Source: Candidatus Yonathbacteria bacterium RIFOXYD1_FULL_52_36
Lineage (GTDB): Bacteria > Patescibacteriota > Minisyncoccia > Phycocordibacterales > UBA1539_B
NCBI GenBank assembly: GCA_001823605.1
Contig: MHUZ01000021.1
Location: forward strand, 1 to 27,907
Length of the DNA stretch: 27,907 bases
Reading direction: 5' to 3'
The notes under the pieces are model-generated. The model saw only the letters and a program-made list of their open reading frames with translations, ran no database searches and was not told the origin of the DNA. Within the stretch, counting starts at the first letter, position 1, and each line of letters opens with the position of its first letter. Position numbers and translations under genes: made by a program. This document shows, one piece after another, positions 12,826-22,796 of the stretch.

Positions 12826-13083
12826 TTAGTATGGTCTTGGGACACCAACGACATTTGCAATGACGTTGATGATCACATACACAAGAAGCATGATCGACAT
12901 ACCAACGACTCCCCAGATCATGTGTCGCTTCCCATCTTCGCGACTCGTGTCGTCATCAAACCCTTTTACGAATTTGAGCACGCCCCACACAAAATAGAGC
13001 ACTGCGGCAGATGAGATAAGTACGATGAACGGATTGAGAATCTCTCGCGAGATCGAAGAGATAAGCTGACCTAGAGGATCCAT
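12826..13083 (-). CDS. Small two-TM protein, paralogue A of the VirB2/TrbC-like 'T4SS-pilin-like' family. Core only, with no signal peptide.
   Basis: Shared core: AAVLYFVWGVLKFVKGFDDDTSREDGKRHMIWGVVGMSIMLLVYVIINV. It lies 9 nt downstream of paralogue B. The start is taken as ATG 13081-13083. The track starts at a TTG at 13086. Confidence 0.65.
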   Translation of the reverse strand: MDPLGQLISSISREILNPFIVLISSAAVLYFVWGVLKFVKGFDDDTSREDGKRHMIWGVVGMSIMLLVYVIINVIANVVGVPRPY

Positions 13084-13095
13084 CAAAGAGTACGC

Positions 13096-13482
13096 TTAGC
13101 GAGTACGGTTGTTGATCGGGAGATCTGGCGCAGATCCTGTTGTTCCACGTCCACCGACCGTTCGAATCAAAATTCCCACCAATGCCCATACGCTCACCAT
13201 AATAGCGATCGCCACAATGCTGTGGACGATCATACTGCGAGCTTCTTTACGAGCTTCTTCGTCACCTGAATTCAAAACAAACTTTGCCAATCCCCAGAGG
13301 AAATACACCACCGCGAGTGAAACAAAGAGTGAAGCGAGGAGGTTCAAAATAGTACCGACGAACGCAAAGACATCTCCCGCGTCTGCTTGTGTACCAATGG
13401 TAAGTGGTCCCGTCGCAAATACTGCCACAGGAAGCATCGCCACGAGGATCCATGCTGAGATCTTTATTGCTGTAGAACGCAT
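13096..13482 (-). CDS. Small two-TM protein, paralogue B, with an N-terminal signal peptide
   Basis: Signal peptide MRSTAIKISAWILVAMLPVAVFA. Core: VVYFLWGLAKFVLNSGDEEARKEARSMIVHSIVAIAIMVSVWALVGIL. The alternative upstream start at 13527 is encoded by AT-rich, promoter-like sequence. Confidence 0.65.
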   Translation of the reverse strand: MRSTAIKISAWILVAMLPVAVFATGPLTIGTQADAGDVFAFVGTILNLLASLFVSLAVVYFLWGLAKFVLNSGDEEARKEARSMIVHSIVAIAIMVSVWALVGILIRTVGGRGTTGSAPDLPINNRTR

Positions 13483-13590
13483 AACGTAATTAAAAATGCT
13501 TTTATAAATAAAATTGATGATCGACACAACCTATCCTCTAGTATACGGCACACCTGGACAACCCGCAATCATACCTGTGGATAGCACCGT

Positions 13591-13935
13591 TTACGAAAGC
13601 GTGCGTACCACGATCCCCACAAATGCCCAAAAGGCGGCAATGACCGCAAGAGCGACGATTCCCCAAATCATCCGTTCCCTGCCCTCAGTGCGCCCGTCAG
13701 ACTCTGCAGAATTGCGTATATACTGCACGGCACCCCAGAGAAAATAGACAATGGTGGCAGCAAAAAGAATACTCACCAAAGGACCGATGATCTGACCGAC
13801 CACATACTGCACCAATGTCCTAAAGTCAGTAAAGTGCTCTGACACATATACCCCTTCCGCCGAAAGAACGAGCGGAGCAAATAATCCAAATGCCCCAAGG
13901 ACACTGCCGATGTTTCTTTGAACCCTAGTATGCAT
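13591..13935 (-). CDS. Small two-TM protein, paralogue C, with an N-terminal signal peptide
   Basis: Signal peptide MHTRVQRNIGSVLGAFGLFAPLVLSAEG. Core: TIVYFLWGAVQYIRNSAESDGRTEGRERMIWGIVALAVIAAFWAFVGIV. A GAGAGA SD sits 9 nt upstream. Confidence 0.7.
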   Translation of the reverse strand: MHTRVQRNIGSVLGAFGLFAPLVLSAEGVYVSEHFTDFRTLVQYVVGQIIGPLVSILFAATIVYFLWGAVQYIRNSAESDGRTEGRERMIWGIVALAVIAAFWAFVGIVVRTLS

Positions 13936-13951
13936 ATATTTATCTCTCTAT

Positions 13952-14419
13952 CTAGATCCTTTGGATCGTCCCCGCAATCGCCGTTGCCAACGCCCAAGCG
14001 CCGAGTACGATCGCCGCGCCAATAATCGTACCAAAAAATGTTTTCTTGGCATCTTCAAGTTTCTTAGTGTCTCCTCCTGCAGTCACAAAAAGAAATCCGG
14101 AGTAAATAAGCATCACCGCTATGACCGGCATCAAGATCCGCACAATCGCTTCAAGGACTTTGTGTAAAAGCTCCATGAGGCTGTTGTAGGGTGTCGGGTT
14201 CGGAAACCTGATTGTCTCCCCAGATCCTGCCACTGGCTGAACATTGGTAGTTCGAGGTGCCTGCGGCGTGATTGTACCCTGTCCCGCGGGTGGCTGTGGC
14301 GTAATGGTCCCTTGGGCATACACAACACCCCCCGGCACCGCAACAAGAACCATGCTGACCAACAGCGAACATACTGCTATGCCACCTGCGATGTACGTAT
14401 ATAGTGATTTCATGCTCAT
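13952..14419 (-). CDS. VirB2/TrbC-like pilin-like protein, paralogue D, with a signal peptide and a Pro/Thr-rich tandem repeat
   Basis: Signal peptide MSMKSLYTYIAGGIAVCSLLVSMVLVAVPGGVVYAQG. Tandem 11-mer GTITPQPPAGQ / GTITPQAPRTT. Core IAVMLIYSGFLFVTAGGDTKKLEDAKKTFFGTIIGAAIVLGAWALATAIAG. This IYGGF..T.GG...K...AKK...A.IG..IV..A pattern was recalled from memory as a CPR pilin-like family signature. Confidence 0.75.
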   Translation of the reverse strand: MSMKSLYTYIAGGIAVCSLLVSMVLVAVPGGVVYAQGTITPQPPAGQGTITPQAPRTTNVQPVAGSGETIRFPNPTPYNSLMELLHKVLEAIVRILMPVIAVMLIYSGFLFVTAGGDTKKLEDAKKTFFGTIIGAAIVLGAWALATAIAGTIQRI

Positions 14420-14425
14420 AGATTA

Positions 14426-14806
14426 TTACCCGACAGATCTAAACGGTTCTTCGAACAGGACCGTCATGACAAACTTTACGATCACCCACGCACCAAATGC
14501 CACCACTAACCCGATCGCGGCCCACAGAAAAGCATCTTTCGCATTTTGACGTGCCGTGTCGCTCCCCCCATGGATCATCAACTGAAACCCCGCATAGGCA
14601 AACGCAACCGCCGCAAGGGGAAGTGCTAACCCGTACAACAAAAAATCAACGATGTTGCGCGCCAGTTGCATAAGTTGTGTCCAGCCACATCCCGACCCTT
14701 CACATGCCGGCACGATCGCCGTCGGCGCAGTCGCGTACACAAGTACCGGAACAAAGCTTACCACGACCGCGCTTGTGCGTGCTGCATAGTCTTGAAACAT
14801 ACTCAT
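14426..14806 (-). CDS. VirB2/TrbC-like pilin-like protein, paralogue E
   Basis: Signal-like hydrophobic N terminus followed by CEGSGCGW. Core AVAFAYAGFQLMIHGGSDTARQNAKDAFLWAAIGLVVAFGAWVIVKFV. It starts 2 nt after the stop of the upstream SBP gene and ends 6 nt before D. Confidence 0.72.
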   Translation of the reverse strand: MSMFQDYAARTSAVVVSFVPVLVYATAPTAIVPACEGSGCGWTQLMQLARNIVDFLLYGLALPLAAVAFAYAGFQLMIHGGSDTARQNAKDAFLWAAIGLVVAFGAWVIVKFVMTVLFEEPFRSVG

Positions 14807-19336: not shown

Positions 19337-19705
19337 TTAAGGGGCTGGTGGTGGTAAAACGTCTTCTTCTGCCGACACTTCCGGTACCAATTCCTCGGTT
19401 GTTGTGGCGGAAGATCCCTCGATCAGAGCTTCTTCTTGGACAACCACCGGAGCATAGTTCTCTGGGGCTTCTGTCTTCTTTTCAAATGGTGCGCCGGTTC
19501 CGCTCATGCTTGCACGAAGGACCCCGCCAAGCGCCTCAAATGGTGAGGGGGCGTTTTGCGCCGTATCTTCACTCTCTTTACCGGCGACCTGCATGAGCAT
19601 TACCCATAGAAAAATAACGAGGCCGAACAAGATTATCGTCAACGCGAGCGCGATCTGTTTGCGCTCATGTTCCGGTTTCTTTTGGAGACGCTCAATGAGA
19701 TCCAT
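19337..19705 (-). CDS. Small membrane protein with an acidic, Pro-rich extracytoplasmic tail
   Basis: A single TM helix IALALTIILFGLVIFLWVMLM follows a basic N terminus. The tail is low complexity and ends in PPPAP. It lies 18 nt downstream of the MBL gene and 37 nt upstream of gyrA. Confidence 0.5.
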   Translation of the reverse strand: MDLIERLQKKPEHERKQIALALTIILFGLVIFLWVMLMQVAGKESEDTAQNAPSPFEALGGVLRASMSGTGAPFEKKTEAPENYAPVVVQEEALIEGSSATTTEELVPEVSAEEDVLPPPAP

Positions 19706-19723
19706 AGCGGATTGCGGTGCGGG

Positions 19724-20353
19724 TTACGCCGTGAGTACAATGACTTTCCCTTCTTTTCCTTCGAGATCCTTGCGCTTGATTGTGAGTTTTTCGAGTACCT
19801 CTGCTTTTTCCCCTGCCTCTTTCTCAAGCGCCGTAAGTGCGGTGTCCCCCACGCCATCATAATGGATCGGGATCAAAATATTTGCTTCGAGTGCGACCGC
19901 GATCTTGTGCGCGTCGCCTGCCGAGAGCACCTCGCCTCCCTCGATCGGTGCGAAGAGGATGTCGACACTCCCCAACATTTCTTTGATCTCGCCCGTAAGC
20001 GCTTCTGCATTCGGCAGTGCGCCCAAGAACCCGATACGGATGTCGTCGAATGTAAGCGCGTAGACCGTATTGGCGCGCAGTTTTTTGTGGTAGGTCGTCT
20101 GTGTATAGGCGCCCTTGATGAAGATTCCCTTCACTTCGTACTCGCCTGGACCCGAAACCACGAATGGCGTCTTATCTCCGTACGTCACCTGTTCGATGCC
20201 GTTGAAATCCGCATCATCGAGCGTAACGAACGCAATATCCGCACCGAAGCGCGACTGCTTCCAGACCGACTCCTTGCCGATGGGGTTAAAAGCGAGCACC
20301 ATATCGCCCACCTGCGCCTTGATGAATTCTCCTCCGTGATAGGTGATAACCAT
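19724..20353 (-). CDS. MBL-fold metal-dependent hydrolase (UPF0173/UlaG-like beta-lactamase superfamily)
   Basis: The N terminus is MVITYHGGEFIKAQ. Metal-ligand regions are HYDGVGD and DILFAPIEGG. The protein is about 210 aa. The start was taken at ATG 20351-20353. The track starts at an upstream GTG. Confidence 0.7.
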   Translation of the reverse strand: MVITYHGGEFIKAQVGDMVLAFNPIGKESVWKQSRFGADIAFVTLDDADFNGIEQVTYGDKTPFVVSGPGEYEVKGIFIKGAYTQTTYHKKLRANTVYALTFDDIRIGFLGALPNAEALTGEIKEMLGSVDILFAPIEGGEVLSAGDAHKIAVALEANILIPIHYDGVGDTALTALEKEAGEKAEVLEKLTIKRKDLEGKEGKVIVLTA

Positions 20354-20417
20354 AGTGGGCACATTCTATCAGGTTTTTCAAAGAACAAAAACTGTTGGGG
20401 GTTGTCCACAGCGGAAC

Positions 20418-20447
20418 TTGTATTTTTGTTTGAGTATTGCATAATAT
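20418..20447 (+). promoter_or_regulatory. Sigma70-like promoter driving the small-ORF locus
   Basis: TTGTAT, an 18-nt spacer and TAATAT. It lies 48 nt upstream of ATG 20495, which has a GGGGGTG SD. Confidence 0.45.
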
Positions 20448-20494
20448 ATCTCGGTTGTTTAAGATCTTTCCATTAAACAAGACGGGGGTGTTGC

Positions 20495-20665
20495 ATGAGT
20501 GAAACACAAGGAAACACGCAAGATACCACTGAGGATGGCTCGTGGTCCGATGACATGAATCTCGGTGCCGCACCACCTGACCAGCCGAATGGTCACCATC
20601 GCGGCCGCCGCACAGACCTCGACCTCAAAAATCAGGCCGTGGAAGCCCTCGACACCTATGGCTGA
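20495..20665 (+). CDS. Candidate small acidic protein of 56 aa (MSETQGNTQDTTEDGSWSDDMNLGAAPPDQPNGHHRGRRTDLDLKNQAVEALDTYG)
   Basis: ATG is preceded by GACGGGGGTG, an SD 6 nt upstream, with a promoter upstream. Codon usage looks host-like (CGC/GGC/GAC). It falls below the 60-aa cutoff of the ORF track. Confidence 0.35.
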   Translation: MSETQGNTQDTTEDGSWSDDMNLGAAPPDQPNGHHRGRRTDLDLKNQAVEALDTYG

Positions 20666-20734
20666 TGTGGTATGGTTGTTTCGGAGCAGTTGGTCACCGG
20701 CCCAATAGTCCGGCATTGCCAGAGGAGCAATCCT

Positions 20735-20854
20735 ATGCACGCCAGCAACACCGGTCCCCCGGGAAAAACCTCGGAGGACATCACGCTGAAGATTGTCACG
20801 CGCGACGAGAAGTCCATCGTGACCAGCACAATCGGCGCCGGCTCGGGCGACTAG
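20735..20854 (+). CDS. Candidate small protein of 39 aa (MHASNTGPPGKTSEDITLKIVTRDEKSIVTSTIGAGSGD)
   Basis: An AGAGGAG SD sits 7 nt upstream of the ATG. The ORF is followed 50 nt later by terminator T1. Confidence 0.3.
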   Translation: MHASNTGPPGKTSEDITLKIVTRDEKSIVTSTIGAGSGD

Positions 20855-20905
20855 CCCTAGGCCTGAACGAATCCAGCATCGACCCCGATGACTGGAAACC
20901 CAACA

Positions 20906-20938
20906 ACGCCCCGACACACGTCGGGGCGTCTTACTTTG
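20906..20938 (+). terminator. Intrinsic terminator T1 (copy 1 of a repeated hairpin)
   Basis: ACGCCCCGAC-ACAC-GTCGGGGCGT followed by CTTACTTTG. Confidence 0.7.
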
Positions 20939-20950
20939 TCCGCCGAGCAC

Positions 20951-20979
20951 TTGACATATCCTACATATCTGCTATACTA
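20951..20979 (+). promoter_or_regulatory. Near-consensus sigma70 promoter
   Basis: TTGACA, a 17-nt spacer (TATCCTACATATCTGC) and TATACT. A 33-codon ORF with a GGAG SD follows 39 nt downstream. Confidence 0.6.
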
Positions 20980-21017
20980 CTACTTGGATCAATTCGATCC
21001 TCACTGGAGAAATACCA

Positions 21018-21119
21018 ATGAAGACGCCCAGCACCTTCTTGAGTAGCCATATGATCAACATCACGGCCGACACCGGCGGCAGCGGTCATCCCGCCATTGG
21101 TCTGAACTACATCGCCTGA
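21018..21119 (+). CDS. Candidate small peptide of 33 aa (MKTPSTFLSSHMINITADTGGSGHPAIGLNYIA)
   Basis: A near-consensus promoter is upstream. A GGAG SD sits 9 nt upstream of the ATG. Terminator T2 lies about 85 nt downstream. Confidence 0.3.
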   Translation: MKTPSTFLSSHMINITADTGGSGHPAIGLNYIA

Positions 21120-21202
21120 ACCACGGCCGGCGCCGACGGGAACACATAAGTGTTCGCCCGCTTCGCCAGTGACATCCTTACCGGATGTCACGCAGCACCC
21201 GA

Positions 21203-21235
21203 CCACCCCCTGCCACTAAGGGGGTGGTTTTTTCT
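21203..21235 (+). terminator. Intrinsic terminator T2
   Basis: CCACCCCC-TGCCACTAA-GGGGGTGG followed by TTTTTTCTT. Confidence 0.75.
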
Positions 21236-21475
21236 TGCGCAAAAAGTTTTCCACAGACACGTGCCATTACCATCACTCCAAGCAAGCGCATGTGATATGC
21301 TTAAAGAGGAGTAGTTTGCGCTAGTCCTTTGGCTAGAGTCCGCGACAAAGGAGCTTTCCCATGAAAAGCCCTCCGCTGTTTAGCACTGCCTCACCCGCGT
21401 GCACCTTCCCGCACTAGGGCGACTGCCATGGCCCTTACAAAGAACCCTGGCTGCTTTTGCCAGCATCTACAACCA

Positions 21476-21506
21476 ACGCCCCGACATACGTCGGGGCGTT
21501 TTCTTG
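21476..21506 (+). terminator. Intrinsic terminator T3 (copy 2 of the repeated hairpin)
   Basis: ACGCCCCGAC-ATAC-GTCGGGGCGT followed by TTTCTTG. It matches T1 apart from one loop base, and both have CAACGCC immediately upstream. It is preceded by an 18-codon ORF (21361-21417) with a perfect AAAGGAG SD. Confidence 0.7.
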
Positions 21507-21680
21507 CCCGAAGACCCCCACCATGCTATAGTTTCCCCACCAAGCCGGCATGTTCGACTCGGTATTAATTGATAACCTTTAAGGGTAACCCCATTAAAGT
21601 GATTGCGCCGTTTAGATGCGCATGAACTTATGGAACCTTAAGGCGGAATGCCCCCGCCCTAGGCGGGCTTTTTTATTTTC
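21503..21680 (+). promoter_or_regulatory. rpsA leader: candidate promoter, two CCTT(T)AAGG palindromic boxes, and a terminator-like hairpin with a U-tract ending 1 nt before the start codon
   Basis: CTTGCC, an 18-nt spacer and TATAGT at 21503-21531. ACCTTTAAGG is at 21575-21584 and ACCTTAAGG at 21624-21632. The hairpin is CCCGC-CCTAG-GCGGG (21653-21667), followed by CTTTTTTATTTTC and then ATG 21681. Confidence 0.45.
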
Positions 21681-22796
21681 ATGACCAAACAAGAAACCAC
21701 AGAAGAAGTTGTCGTCGAAACGCTCATGCACGAGCTTTTGAAGCGCGTCCCCACTCCTCCCAAGCTTGGTGACCTCATTGAAGGCCCGGTCATATCAATC
21801 GACAAAGCGGCAGTCTACATTAACCTGAAGCCCTTCGGAACCGGCATCATTTTCGGCCGCGAGTACCTTCAGGCGCGCGATGTTTTGAAAAAGATCGCCA
21901 TCGGCGATACGATCAGCGCCCAGGTTGTGGACGCACACAACGAAGACGGCTACGTTGAGCTCTCGCTCCACGAGGCACGCCAGGCACTCATCTGGACCGA
22001 GGCAGAAGATGCGATCAAAAAGAAACTTGTCGTCGAGCTCCCGATCAAGGACGCCAACAAGGGTGGACTTATCCTCGAGTGGCAGGGCATCGCAGGATTC
22101 CTCCCGGCTTCACAACTCAAGCCCGAGCACTACCCGCGCGTTGAGGACGGCAGTAAGGATCGTATTTTGGAAGAGCTGAAGAAACTCATCGGCGAAAAAC
22201 TTACCGTCACCATCATCGGTGCTGACCAGAAAGAAGGAAAGCTTATTTTTTCCGAGAAAGATTCAGGACAGAAAGAGAAGCGCGAGATGGTTGAGAAGTA
22301 CGCCGTAGGCGACGAGCGCGACGGCACCGTGACCGGCATCGTTGACTTTGGCGTCTTCGTCAAGATCGAAGAAGGACTCGAGGGACTCGTCCACATCTCC
22401 GAGATGGACTGGGCACTCGTCGAGAATCCGCGCACACTCTACAAAGTAGGCGACAAAGTTCGCGTAAAGGTCATTGATGTAAAGGACGGCAAAGTGTCGC
22501 TCTCGATCAAGGCTCTCAAGGACAATCCGTGGACCGAAGCAAGCAAGAAATGGAAGAAGGGTGATGCAGTGACCGGCGTGGTAATCAAATTCAACCAGTA
22601 CGGCGCACTCGTTTCGATCGAGGAAGGCGTTGCAGGATTGGTTCATTTCTCCGAATTCGGAACGATGGACAAACTCCGCGCAGCACTCGAACTCGGCAAG
22701 ACCTACAGCTTCAAGATCACGCTCTTCGAGCCCAAGGATCAGAAGATGACACTCTCGTTTTCTCAGGCAAACACCGAAGGAGAAGAGGCGAAGTAG
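21681..22796 (+). CDS. rpsA: 30S ribosomal protein S1, four-S1-domain form
   Basis: Repeated S1 OB-fold motifs: G.V.G.V......FGVFV......GLVHISE. The protein is 371 aa. Confidence 0.9.
   Translation: MTKQETTEEVVVETLMHELLKRVPTPPKLGDLIEGPVISIDKAAVYINLKPFGTGIIFGREYLQARDVLKKIAIGDTISAQVVDAHNEDGYVELSLHEARQALIWTEAEDAIKKKLVVELPIKDANKGGLILEWQGIAGFLPASQLKPEHYPRVEDGSKDRILEELKKLIGEKLTVTIIGADQKEGKLIFSEKDSGQKEKREMVEKYAVGDERDGTVTGIVDFGVFVKIEEGLEGLVHISEMDWALVENPRTLYKVGDKVRVKVIDVKDGKVSLSIKALKDNPWTEASKKWKKGDAVTGVVIKFNQYGALVSIEEGVAGLVHFSEFGTMDKLRAALELGKTYSFKITLFEPKDQKMTLSFSQANTEGEEAK

Follow-up and report, generated by a model that had tools for sequence, protein, structure and literature searches.

The spacer between the genes of a Lactamase_B_3 hydrolase (LactB3, minus strand) and of ribosomal protein S1 (rpsA, plus strand) in Candidatus Yonathbacteria bacterium RIFOXYD1_FULL_52_36 is probably a small-gene island of a narrow lineage, with three probable small-protein genes (open reading frames ORF1, ORF2 and ORF3) in two units, one spurious element and a structured leader of the S1 gene. 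It was studied within a stretch of 27,907 nt from contig MHUZ01000021.1 (hereafter the window), which stems from a groundwater genome of the Paceibacteria in the Candidate Phyla Radiation (CPR). The region under study is the entire spacer separating the two genes, which are transcribed divergently. In the proposed model, this variable spacer between core genes would be filled, within a genus-level clade, with self-contained units that all run in the direction of S1. Unit 1 (20418-20932) would be transcribed from promoter P1 into a bicistronic mRNA of ORF1 and ORF2 that stops at terminator T1, and unit 2 (20951-21236) would be read from promoter P2 through ORF3 up to terminator T2. The S1 unit would consist of its own promoter and, downstream, a structured leader some 140 nt long that lacks a Shine-Dalgarno (SD) sequence. 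The features of the two small-gene units are the following (positions refer to the window):

20418-20447, plus strand: predicted promoter P1, TTGTAT-18-TAATAT, recognised by its sequence; would serve the ORF1-ORF2 unit
20495-20665, plus strand: ORF1, 56 aa, SD GGGGGTG at 20484-20490; acidic, presumably soluble product
20735-20854, plus strand: ORF2, 39 aa, SD AGAGGAG at 20721-20727; Gly/Ser/Thr-rich variable peptide
20904-20932 (hairpin 20906-20929), plus strand: predicted intrinsic terminator T1, GC-rich stem of 10-11 bp; closes unit 1
20951-20978, plus strand: predicted promoter P2, TTGACA-16-TATACT with TG upstream; 11 of 12 consensus positions
21018-21119, plus strand: ORF3, 33 aa, SD GGAG at 21006-21009; variable peptide
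21140-21155 and 21169-21191, plus strand: two hairpins between ORF3 and T2
21201-21229 plus U-run (element 21140-21236), plus strand: predicted intrinsic terminator T2, 11-bp stem followed by TTTTTTC

Probable small genes and their predicted transcription units

To find homologues of the small ORFs, 1.84 billion representative proteins were searched exhaustively by HMMER with the three peptides concatenated as query. This search yielded P0006, a protein of 56 aa whose identity to ORF1 is 67% over residues 10-56 and 54% over the full length, and a cluster look-up added P0008, likewise of 56 aa and 57% identical to the ORF1 of the window. The contigs carrying these two proteins show the same synteny as the window. 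The loci used for comparison, denoted by L numbers like all loci of other assemblies, are:

L179: S1 91%, gyrA 93% and LactB3 88% identical; P1-ORF1-ORF2-T1, then straight to the S1 promoter and leader
L182 and L183: ORF1 is P0008; P1-ORF1-ORF2-T1 and P2-ORF3-T2, then the S1 promoter
L181: ORF1 identical to that of L179; ORF1, another ORF2 allele, T1, P2 and the start of an ORF3 homologue
L099: closest metagenomic relative by LactB3 scan, S1 81% identical; spacer of 1.6 kb with promoter-SD-small ORF-terminator units of the same style

Across the close relatives, P1, P2, both SD sequences, T1 and T2 are all kept. The initial annotation, which described the region as a small-protein, peptide or small RNA (sRNA) locus, had named conservation of hairpins and promoters without the reading frames as a sign of sRNAs; in the close relatives the frames, SD sequences, starts and stops of ORF1 to ORF3 are retained besides the hairpins and promoters. 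Codon usage was scored per codon by a log-odds model trained on the 22 real genes of the window. On this scale, in-frame gene segments reach 0.32+/-0.15-0.18, compared with -0.26+/-0.21 (maximum 0.26) for 72 out-of-frame ATG-ORFs.

For ORF1, comparative evidence argues with high confidence for a real protein gene under purifying selection, since its length is constant, its ratio of non-synonymous to synonymous divergence (dN/dS) is low, its substitutions favour the third codon position and its codon usage is gene-like. All three alleles encode 56 aa, and the codon score of 0.28 lies inside the gene range. The dN/dS amounts to 0.24-0.26 for the window against L179 and L182 and to 0.09 between the latter two; for comparison, the neighbouring hypothetical gene gives 0.13-0.23 and LactB3 0.03-0.06. 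Substitutions at codon positions 1/2/3 number 16/11/28, 15/9/27 and 1/2/11 (p=0.016, 0.007 and 0.0015). In the relatives the SD sequence is the canonical GGAGGTG, so that the GGGGGTG of the window is the unusual form. The peptide is strongly hydrophilic (GRAVY -1.36). In an AlphaFold2 (AF2) model, the acidic N-terminal 40 residues are unstructured with low confidence (pLDDT about 50-66) and a C-terminal helix is predicted at residues 41-55 with a mean pLDDT of 65, a quality too poor for a fold search.

ORF2 and ORF3 are probably translated because frame, SD sequence, start and stop are all retained in their homologues. ORF2, for which we consider translation likely from these comparisons, has a gene-like codon score of 0.36 in its 39-aa form. 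Its five known alleles of 37-46 aa share the invariant pattern M..TGPP.K.S..I..EKS..IG.GS, and relatives conserve the SD sequence, the ATG and the context of the stop codon (GCGAC-TAG-C). Relative to the window, the ATG-to-stop interval is changed by 9, -6 and 21 nt, each a multiple of three. A 24-nt block of ORF2, CTCGGAGGACATCACGCTGAAGAT, which contains GGAGGA, is identical in the window and L179.

For ORF3 the balance of the comparative evidence leans towards translation with less assurance, and the codon score of 0.13 falls between those of genes and of shadow ORFs. In L182, L183 and L181, homologues lie downstream of the same promoter, and in L089 a divergent allele does. The L182 homologue (38 aa, MKTPEYALSSLMSRLNFAKHDTGDSDHPATGLSLKYID) aligns with the ORF3 of the window from MKTP to the C-terminal YI(A/D) with indels in frame, and in general the length of ORF3 differs from that of relatives by in-frame changes only (15 nt listed between ATG and stop). 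The similarity of the L181 fragment to the window peptide is significant against shuffled sequences (p=0.0005). In L089 (563-815, compared with window 20957-21109) the body of ORF3 is swapped for the divergent allele MKMKKHLYFSSSLGANIAVHFANT, after which a further SD-ATG (MNLEEK...) enters an assembly gap; the population therefore contains a different or additional cassette.

Outside the close clade, phmmer, hmmsearch and leave-one-out searches over the gaps of all relatives detected no supported peptide family. An alignment of the ORF2 family with a 45-aa ORF of L099 by hhalign was marginal (P=0.023) and ORF3 gave no match there. Peptide similarities seen by eye (MH..PP.G...IGAGxGD and N.T.D...TGSG) were discarded, as they had no statistical support outside the close clade. 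In a word-indexed protein search, ORF1 and ORF2 (the latter queried as a 60-aa long form) matched only themselves. The expectation that standard annotation would miss such genes does not hold: gene callers applied to public assemblies already predict the ORFs of 56, 39 and 33 aa, i.e. ORF1 to ORF3. Some public calls place a 76-aa minus-strand ORF in the position of ORF3 (L081:9281-9511, corresponding to window 20961-21191, minus strand), which, with a codon score near 0 and a lack of homologues, is probably a mis-call.

The promoters, SD sequences, ORFs and terminators listed by the initial annotation are all present at their positions, with two small corrections: the hexamers TTGACA and TATACT of P2 stand as described, the distance between them is 16 nt and not 17, and T3 did not appear among the sites of the terminator scanner. 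The unusual density ascribed to these signals is also borne out. Promoter-like sites in 19500-22500 number 5 versus 1.8+/-1.3 in shuffled sequences and terminator-like sites 12 versus 3.5+/-1.9, three hairpin terminators with stems of at least 10 pairs lie in the region versus one in the other 20 kb (Poisson p about 5e-5), and five-base SD-like motifs occur seven times on the plus strand, where 2.8+/-1.7 are expected, and once on the minus strand. The signals are thus real and denser than chance. The longer ORFs of the region (163 aa on the minus strand, 118 aa on the plus strand and 81 aa on the minus strand) have negative codon scores, and a Pfam search of the six-frame ORFs of the region, these three included, gave no match, in agreement with the earlier view that no ORF of 60 aa or longer is credible here.

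Judged by sequence, P1, P2 and the S1 promoter P4 qualify as predicted sigma-70 promoters and T1 and T2 as predicted intrinsic terminators, and P1, P2, T1 and T2 are conserved. At the position of P1, both L179 and L182 have TTGCAT-18-TAATAA; the P1 segment is 67% identical to that of L179, compared with 40-51% in adjacent non-coding DNA. P2 is conserved together with the first approximately 12 transcribed bases in L099, L181, L182 and the strain variant L089. L179, L181 and L182 keep the stem of T1, which in L182 is followed by a clean U-run. Compared with shuffled sequences, the segment 20984-21237 folds with z=-4.6. In L182 the equivalent of T2 directly adjoins the S1 promoter, of which the block 'atgcTATAGT..cccacc' is kept in L179 and L182.

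Thus, the description of the region as a small-protein locus is supported for its first two elements, which form units of promoter, SD sequence, ORF and terminator, and fails for the third, an 18-codon ORF (ORF4) in an insertion that is restricted to this species and shows non-coding codon usage. The features of this part are:

21230-21502, plus strand: insertion of about 270 nt with TTTTCTTGC repeats on both sides; a duplicate of T1 forms its end
21361-21417, plus strand: ORF4, 18 aa, AAGGAG at about 21348-21353; probably not a gene
21474-21502 (hairpin 21476-21500), plus strand: T3, a 29-nt copy of T1 with 93% identity, missed by the terminator scanner

The insertion is missing from L182 and L179, and a homologue of 21230-21502 was found in no locus outside the same species. 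ORF4 has a codon score of -0.39, in the non-coding range, and its SD sequence and start sit inside a predicted hairpin; that it is a gene appears very doubtful. Most likely, the insertion is non-coding debris of a duplication or recombination. T1 and T3 are the left and the other copy of a 29-nt direct repeat, of which the window has no further copy. The independent assemblies L083, L090, L095 and L098 break at or beside the T3 hairpin (window about 21451-21489), as would be expected if repeats or strain variation caused problems at this site.

The structured leader of the S1 gene

The last element of the spacer, which the initial annotation had listed as the rpsA leader, proved to be a widely conserved structured element. 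It comprises the following features:

21504-21532, plus strand: predicted S1 promoter P4, TTGCCC-17-TATAGT, from the promoter scan
21539-21680, plus strand: structured S1 leader, no SD sequence visible
21576-21584 paired with 21636-21643, plus strand: leader helix P1, enclosing the UAAC motif (21586-21589) and an inner hairpin
21653-21680 (hairpin 21653-21667), plus strand: terminator-like GC hairpin and U-run before the S1 ATG

Comparison of many genomes shows that this leader contains a two-helix RNA motif in the 5' untranslated region (UTR) of a ribosomal protein (r-protein) mRNA; the structure is conserved, has strong covariation support and is common to many Paceibacteria. Single-sequence folds gave the same architecture with different sequences in about 20 of 22 leaders of relatives. 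MAFFT was unable to align leaders with inner hairpins of unequal length, and a narrow covariance model of the motif (R1) recovered its own subclade only; with filters off, true leaders appeared amid noise. As both tools were inadequate, a descriptor search with shuffled controls was used. The strict descriptor matched 21 of 111 non-redundant leaders, compared with 1.8% of shuffled sequences and 4.9% of sequences in which the motif was kept and the flanks were shuffled (p<1e-12). Most positions of the helices show four to six pair types. In an alignment of six leaders, 9 of 14 pairs are compensatory and 91.7% of the cells are paired versus 74% in shuffles, none of 500 of which reached the score; the signal collapses when the pairing partners are slid.

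The leader takes up the 100-190 nt next to S1 in L099, L179, L182, L041, L046, L051, L053, L055, L064, L077, L078 and others. Its GC hairpin and U-run come within 13 nt of the S1 ATG and are present even in spacers of 145-170 nt, which indicates that they are part of the leader and not the terminator of an upstream gene. L182 (2440-2560) has about 75 extra nt and a GAGGAG SD sequence between the leader U-run and the called S1 start (MVIH...), unlike the window, L179 and L099, which lack an SD sequence here.

The structured-RNA check by Rfam that had been proposed for this region was negative. Covariance scans with Rfam 15, at gathering as well as permissive thresholds, over the window and the loci of 12 relatives gave no relevant match, the best E-value in 20250-21800 being 0.11 with scores far under gathering. 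Likewise, the leader is not among the published r-leader candidates, including the 20 described in PMC7247131. Its position and the precedent of E. coli rpsA make autogenous control of S1 the most likely role of the leader.

Variable spacer cargo and gain and loss of units

The spacer is flanked by conserved genes, for which the following features were annotated:

19724-20353, minus strand: Lactamase_B_3 hydrolase LactB3 (Pfam PF13483, E=7.7e-17); transcription leads away from the spacer
20472-20443, minus strand: candidate LactB3 promoter, a promoter-like site from the scan
21681-22796, plus strand: ribosomal protein S1 with four S1 domains (Pfam PF00575, E=5.7e-41)

The candidate LactB3 promoter is the sole promoter-like site on the minus strand of the region and points at the LactB3 gene. 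The gene content of the window is of housekeeping type and includes ClpB, superoxide dismutase (SOD), IF-2, tRNAs, gyrA, S1, Pth and HisRS, among others. On the minus strand at 12826-14806, five tandem genes of 85-155 aa all match T4SS_pilin/TrbC, and the gene of a solute-binding protein adjoins. Near-identical copies of this species are found in at least 14 public contigs, largely from groundwater assemblies.

Relatives identified by S1 are all metagenome-assembled genomes of Paceibacteria/Parcubacteria-type CPR bacteria, with S1 proteins at most 70% identical in the GTDB species set. The gene order gyrA-hypothetical gene-LactB3/S1 is kept in 63 of 80 GTDB relatives, and the LactB3-S1 spacer varies continuously between 145 and 2267 nt in these 63. 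Searches of the region against the 80 relatives by blastn and tblastx showed no conservation, these genomes being too distant at such levels of S1 identity; wide conservation in the spacer is restricted to the 100-190 nt adjoining S1. The cargo differs by lineage and comprises nothing at all, CsrA (PF02599; L101, L126 and L029), a HIT protein (L104), an IS30-like HTH-domain protein (L126), an IS200-like Y1 transposase (L048), secreted proteins or SD-led small ORFs. Across the Paceibacteria loci compared (L001-L080 and L099-L178), the spacer behaves like an insertion and recombination hotspot.

Near-consensus sigma-70 promoters (TTGACA-N16/17-TATAAT or TATACT, frequently with a TG that extends the -10 element) were found in the spacers of 18 relatives, for example L005, L009, L042, L043, L050, L061, L062, L069 and L076, and all of them lie on the S1 strand. 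Several of them precede an SD-led small ORF and others have no obvious ORF downstream. In L042 and L050, a block that would be transcribed from the spacer promoter is conserved between both.

Among the closer relatives, whole units are gained and lost. Unit 2 (P2-ORF3-T2) was found in the window, L181, L182 and L099-like genomes and is absent from L179. Recombination at repeated terminator hairpins would be the simplest mechanism for such gain and loss, since the T1/T3 repeats and the repeated terminator-promoter junctions coincide exactly with the breakpoints.

The comparison of L182 with L183 (spanning L182:804-2227) adds a second aspect. In LactB3, 30 sites differ (4.8%), 28 of them synonymous and 2 non-synonymous, whereas ORF1 and all non-coding spacer DNA together (536 nt) contain 2 differences. 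ORF2 and ORF3 (240 nt) account for 11 of the 13 differences in the spacer, 9 of which are non-synonymous (Fisher p=9e-5). This contrast suggests that lineages have recently exchanged the spacer and that diversification is centred on ORF2 and ORF3. All four ORF2 differences between L182 and L183 fall on adenines of L182, a sample too small to be interpreted.

It is possible, though rather unlikely, that ORF2 and ORF3 represent hypervariable peptide cassettes under diversifying selection which are swapped between strains through recombination at conserved promoter/terminator modules, i.e. a minimal 'shufflon' in an episymbiotic CPR bacterium. If true, the peptides would serve interactions with hosts, phages or competitors, beside an undescribed class-wide autoregulatory leader of S1.

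Peptide function, alternative readings and known systems

The products of ORF1 to ORF3 have no match in Pfam, NCBIfam, PADLOC, PHROGs, PDB profiles or viral contigs. No hydrophobic, signal or membrane segment was found in any of the peptides (Kyte-Doolittle maximum over 11 residues below 1.0), and neither maturation, export (C39-peptidase) and immunity genes nor a reverse transcriptase (RT) gene is present in the 28-kb window or the 31-kb contig. Soluble intracellular small proteins are favoured for all three. As a best guess, the products would be cytoplasmic; ORF1 would encode a small adaptor or regulator, and the fast-evolving peptides of ORF2 and ORF3 would have accessory roles.

Several observations weigh against the reading of the spacer as an island of small-protein genes. 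Substitutions in ORF3 are distributed flatly over the codon positions with a dN/dS of 0.76, and ORF2 shows a dN/dS of 0.45-0.76 and at most a weak excess at the third position. The synonymous divergence of ORF2 is 0.3-0.56, compared with 1.0-1.4 in the neighbouring genes (window versus L179, L181 and L182), which may reflect constraint at the RNA level or a recent recombination tract. L099 retains the layout of the units with peptides that have no detectable homology to those of the window. For ORF2 and ORF3, the case is built on the conservation of frame, SD sequence and stop in four to five alleles of one narrow clade, and throughout the spacer the firing of promoters and terminators and the translation of the ORFs are deduced from sequence. 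Furthermore, the transcripts fold better than shuffled sequences (z=-3.8 and -4.6). Flat substitutions at these dN/dS values, nucleotides of ORF2 that are more conserved than synonymous sites of the neighbours, stable folding and a promoter/terminator layout kept by distant relatives without the peptides would all suit units that are sRNA genes, encoding structured RNAs of approximately 200-450 nt in which ORF2, ORF3 and possibly ORF1 are incidental or have a dual function. This explanation is unlikely in view of the clear coding signature of ORF1, the gene-like codon usage of ORF1 and ORF2, and the fact that all alleles of ORF2 and ORF3 retain SD sequence, ATG, stop and frame and change in length only in frame; in addition, no Rfam family matches and the terminator hairpins supply much of the folding signal. 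An extracellular role of ORF2 and ORF3, as precursors or variable peptides of the type of ribosomally synthesised and post-translationally modified peptides (RiPPs), bacteriocins or host-interaction factors, or else as toxin-antitoxin-like units, is quite improbable. The conserved N-proximal blocks with variable Gly/Ser-rich C-terminal parts are compatible with it, as are the mainly non-synonymous differences of near-identical strains, concentrated in ORF2 and ORF3, and the variation in unit presence and alleles among strains. However, the peptides have no signal peptide or hydrophobic segment, the context in the 28-kb window is of housekeeping type without a modifying enzyme, C39-peptidase transporter or immunity gene, PADLOC, Pfam and NCBIfam give no match, and cleavage at the double glycine of the ORF2 of the window (IGAG) would yield a product of 3 residues. 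The secreted peptides and toxin/antitoxin-like pairs that the initial annotation had offered as examples consequently find no support, there being neither a hydrophobic or signal segment nor a family match or partner genes.

That the region is a decayed pseudogene or random intergenic DNA in which the signals coincide by chance is very improbable as a whole. The missing homologues in the blastn and tblastx searches of the 80 GTDB relatives and the restriction of 21230-21502 to the species would agree with this explanation, but close relatives retain units 1 and 2 with signatures of selection, the six-frame ORFs show no Pfam match and the density of signals is far above that of shuffled sequences. 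It is thus largely refuted for 20418-21236 and plausible for 21230-21502 alone. An even fainter prospect is that the region is a replication origin or encodes a sponge RNA titrating CsrA; the apparent SD sequences would in that case be due to DnaA-box-like 9-mers or to GGA-rich motifs. One-mismatch variants of the DnaA box at 20402-20410 and 21247-21255 (TTGTCCACA and TTTTCCACA), boxes at similar relative positions in L099 (CTATCCACA and TTATCCACA, at about 3897 and 3045), the divergent flanking genes and the nearby gyrA are in line with an origin, and the CsrA gene in this spacer of L101, L126 and L029 is in line with a sponge. Against the former stand a DnaA-box count in the window of 5 with 4.7 expected, a GC content of 50-57% without an AT-rich region, and a monotonic cumulative skew without a GC-skew switch; against the latter, GGA is not enriched (18 versus 20.1+/-3.6).

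Specific peptide systems were also considered and rejected. For a type I toxin-antitoxin system, no hydrophobic membrane-inserting peptide is among the candidates; for a bacteriocin or signalling peptide with a double-glycine leader, the product would be 3 residues long and a C39 domain is lacking in the window and the extended contig; for a RiPP precursor, no maturation enzyme is co-located in the 28-kb window or the 31-kb contig; and for a diversity-generating retroelement (DGR), neither an RT nor a long template-like repeat exists in the window. The toxin-antitoxin, bacteriocin, RiPP and DGR readings fail because their defining features are missing, so far as these can be checked.

The preferred reading, an island of small-protein genes beside the S1 leader, has counterparts in other bacteria. 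Small-protein genes of less than 60 codons that have a promoter and a terminator of their own have been catalogued in E. coli and in microbiome surveys of small ORFs such as GMSC (PMC11364881). Like these, the genes of the window are SD-led intergenic ORFs which are lineage-restricted, give no domain matches and are supported mainly by conservation and codon statistics. Unlike them, three are found here in tandem units within one recombination-prone spacer of a reduced CPR genome; two appear to diversify unusually fast, and none can be placed in a functional class such as membrane modulator, toxin or regulator. In CPR/Patescibacteria genomes, which are small and rich in unknowns, the locus offers an orphan small protein with good support (ORF1) and two peptide families that evolve fast, each with defined predicted promoters and terminators. 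Compared with RiPP and bacteriocin cassettes, it shares small peptides with a steadier N-proximal than C-terminal part and variation of alleles and copies between strains, but differs in the lack of adjacent maturation, export and immunity genes, of a leader-cleavage motif that works across alleles and of a Cys-rich or otherwise typical core. As in integration hotspots at core genes, one core pair flanks very different cargo in each lineage. In contrast to such hotspots, the cargo consists of tiny units of 0.3-0.5 kb without a recombinase, and the terminator repeats look like recombination substrates. The locus would also illustrate the turnover of small units in a core-gene spacer via terminator hairpins that occur as repeats.

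Of all results, the motif of the S1 leader can probably be reused most widely. It occurs in many Paceibacteria, shows good covariation and is not contained in Rfam. It would add an r-protein leader to a phylum with almost no described cis-regulatory RNAs. The S1 leader of E. coli is structured, has no canonical SD sequence and is subject to autogenous control by S1. By analogy, the leader of the window, which is also structured and devoid of a canonical SD sequence, would be expected to follow the same autogenous logic. The autoregulatory rpsA leader of E. coli reportedly has a narrow distribution within the Gammaproteobacteria (PMC3616713). In contrast, the leader described here is a feature of Paceibacteria and is composed of an outer helix, a UAAC(C) internal loop, an inner hairpin and a terminator-like hairpin with a U-run that abuts the AUG.

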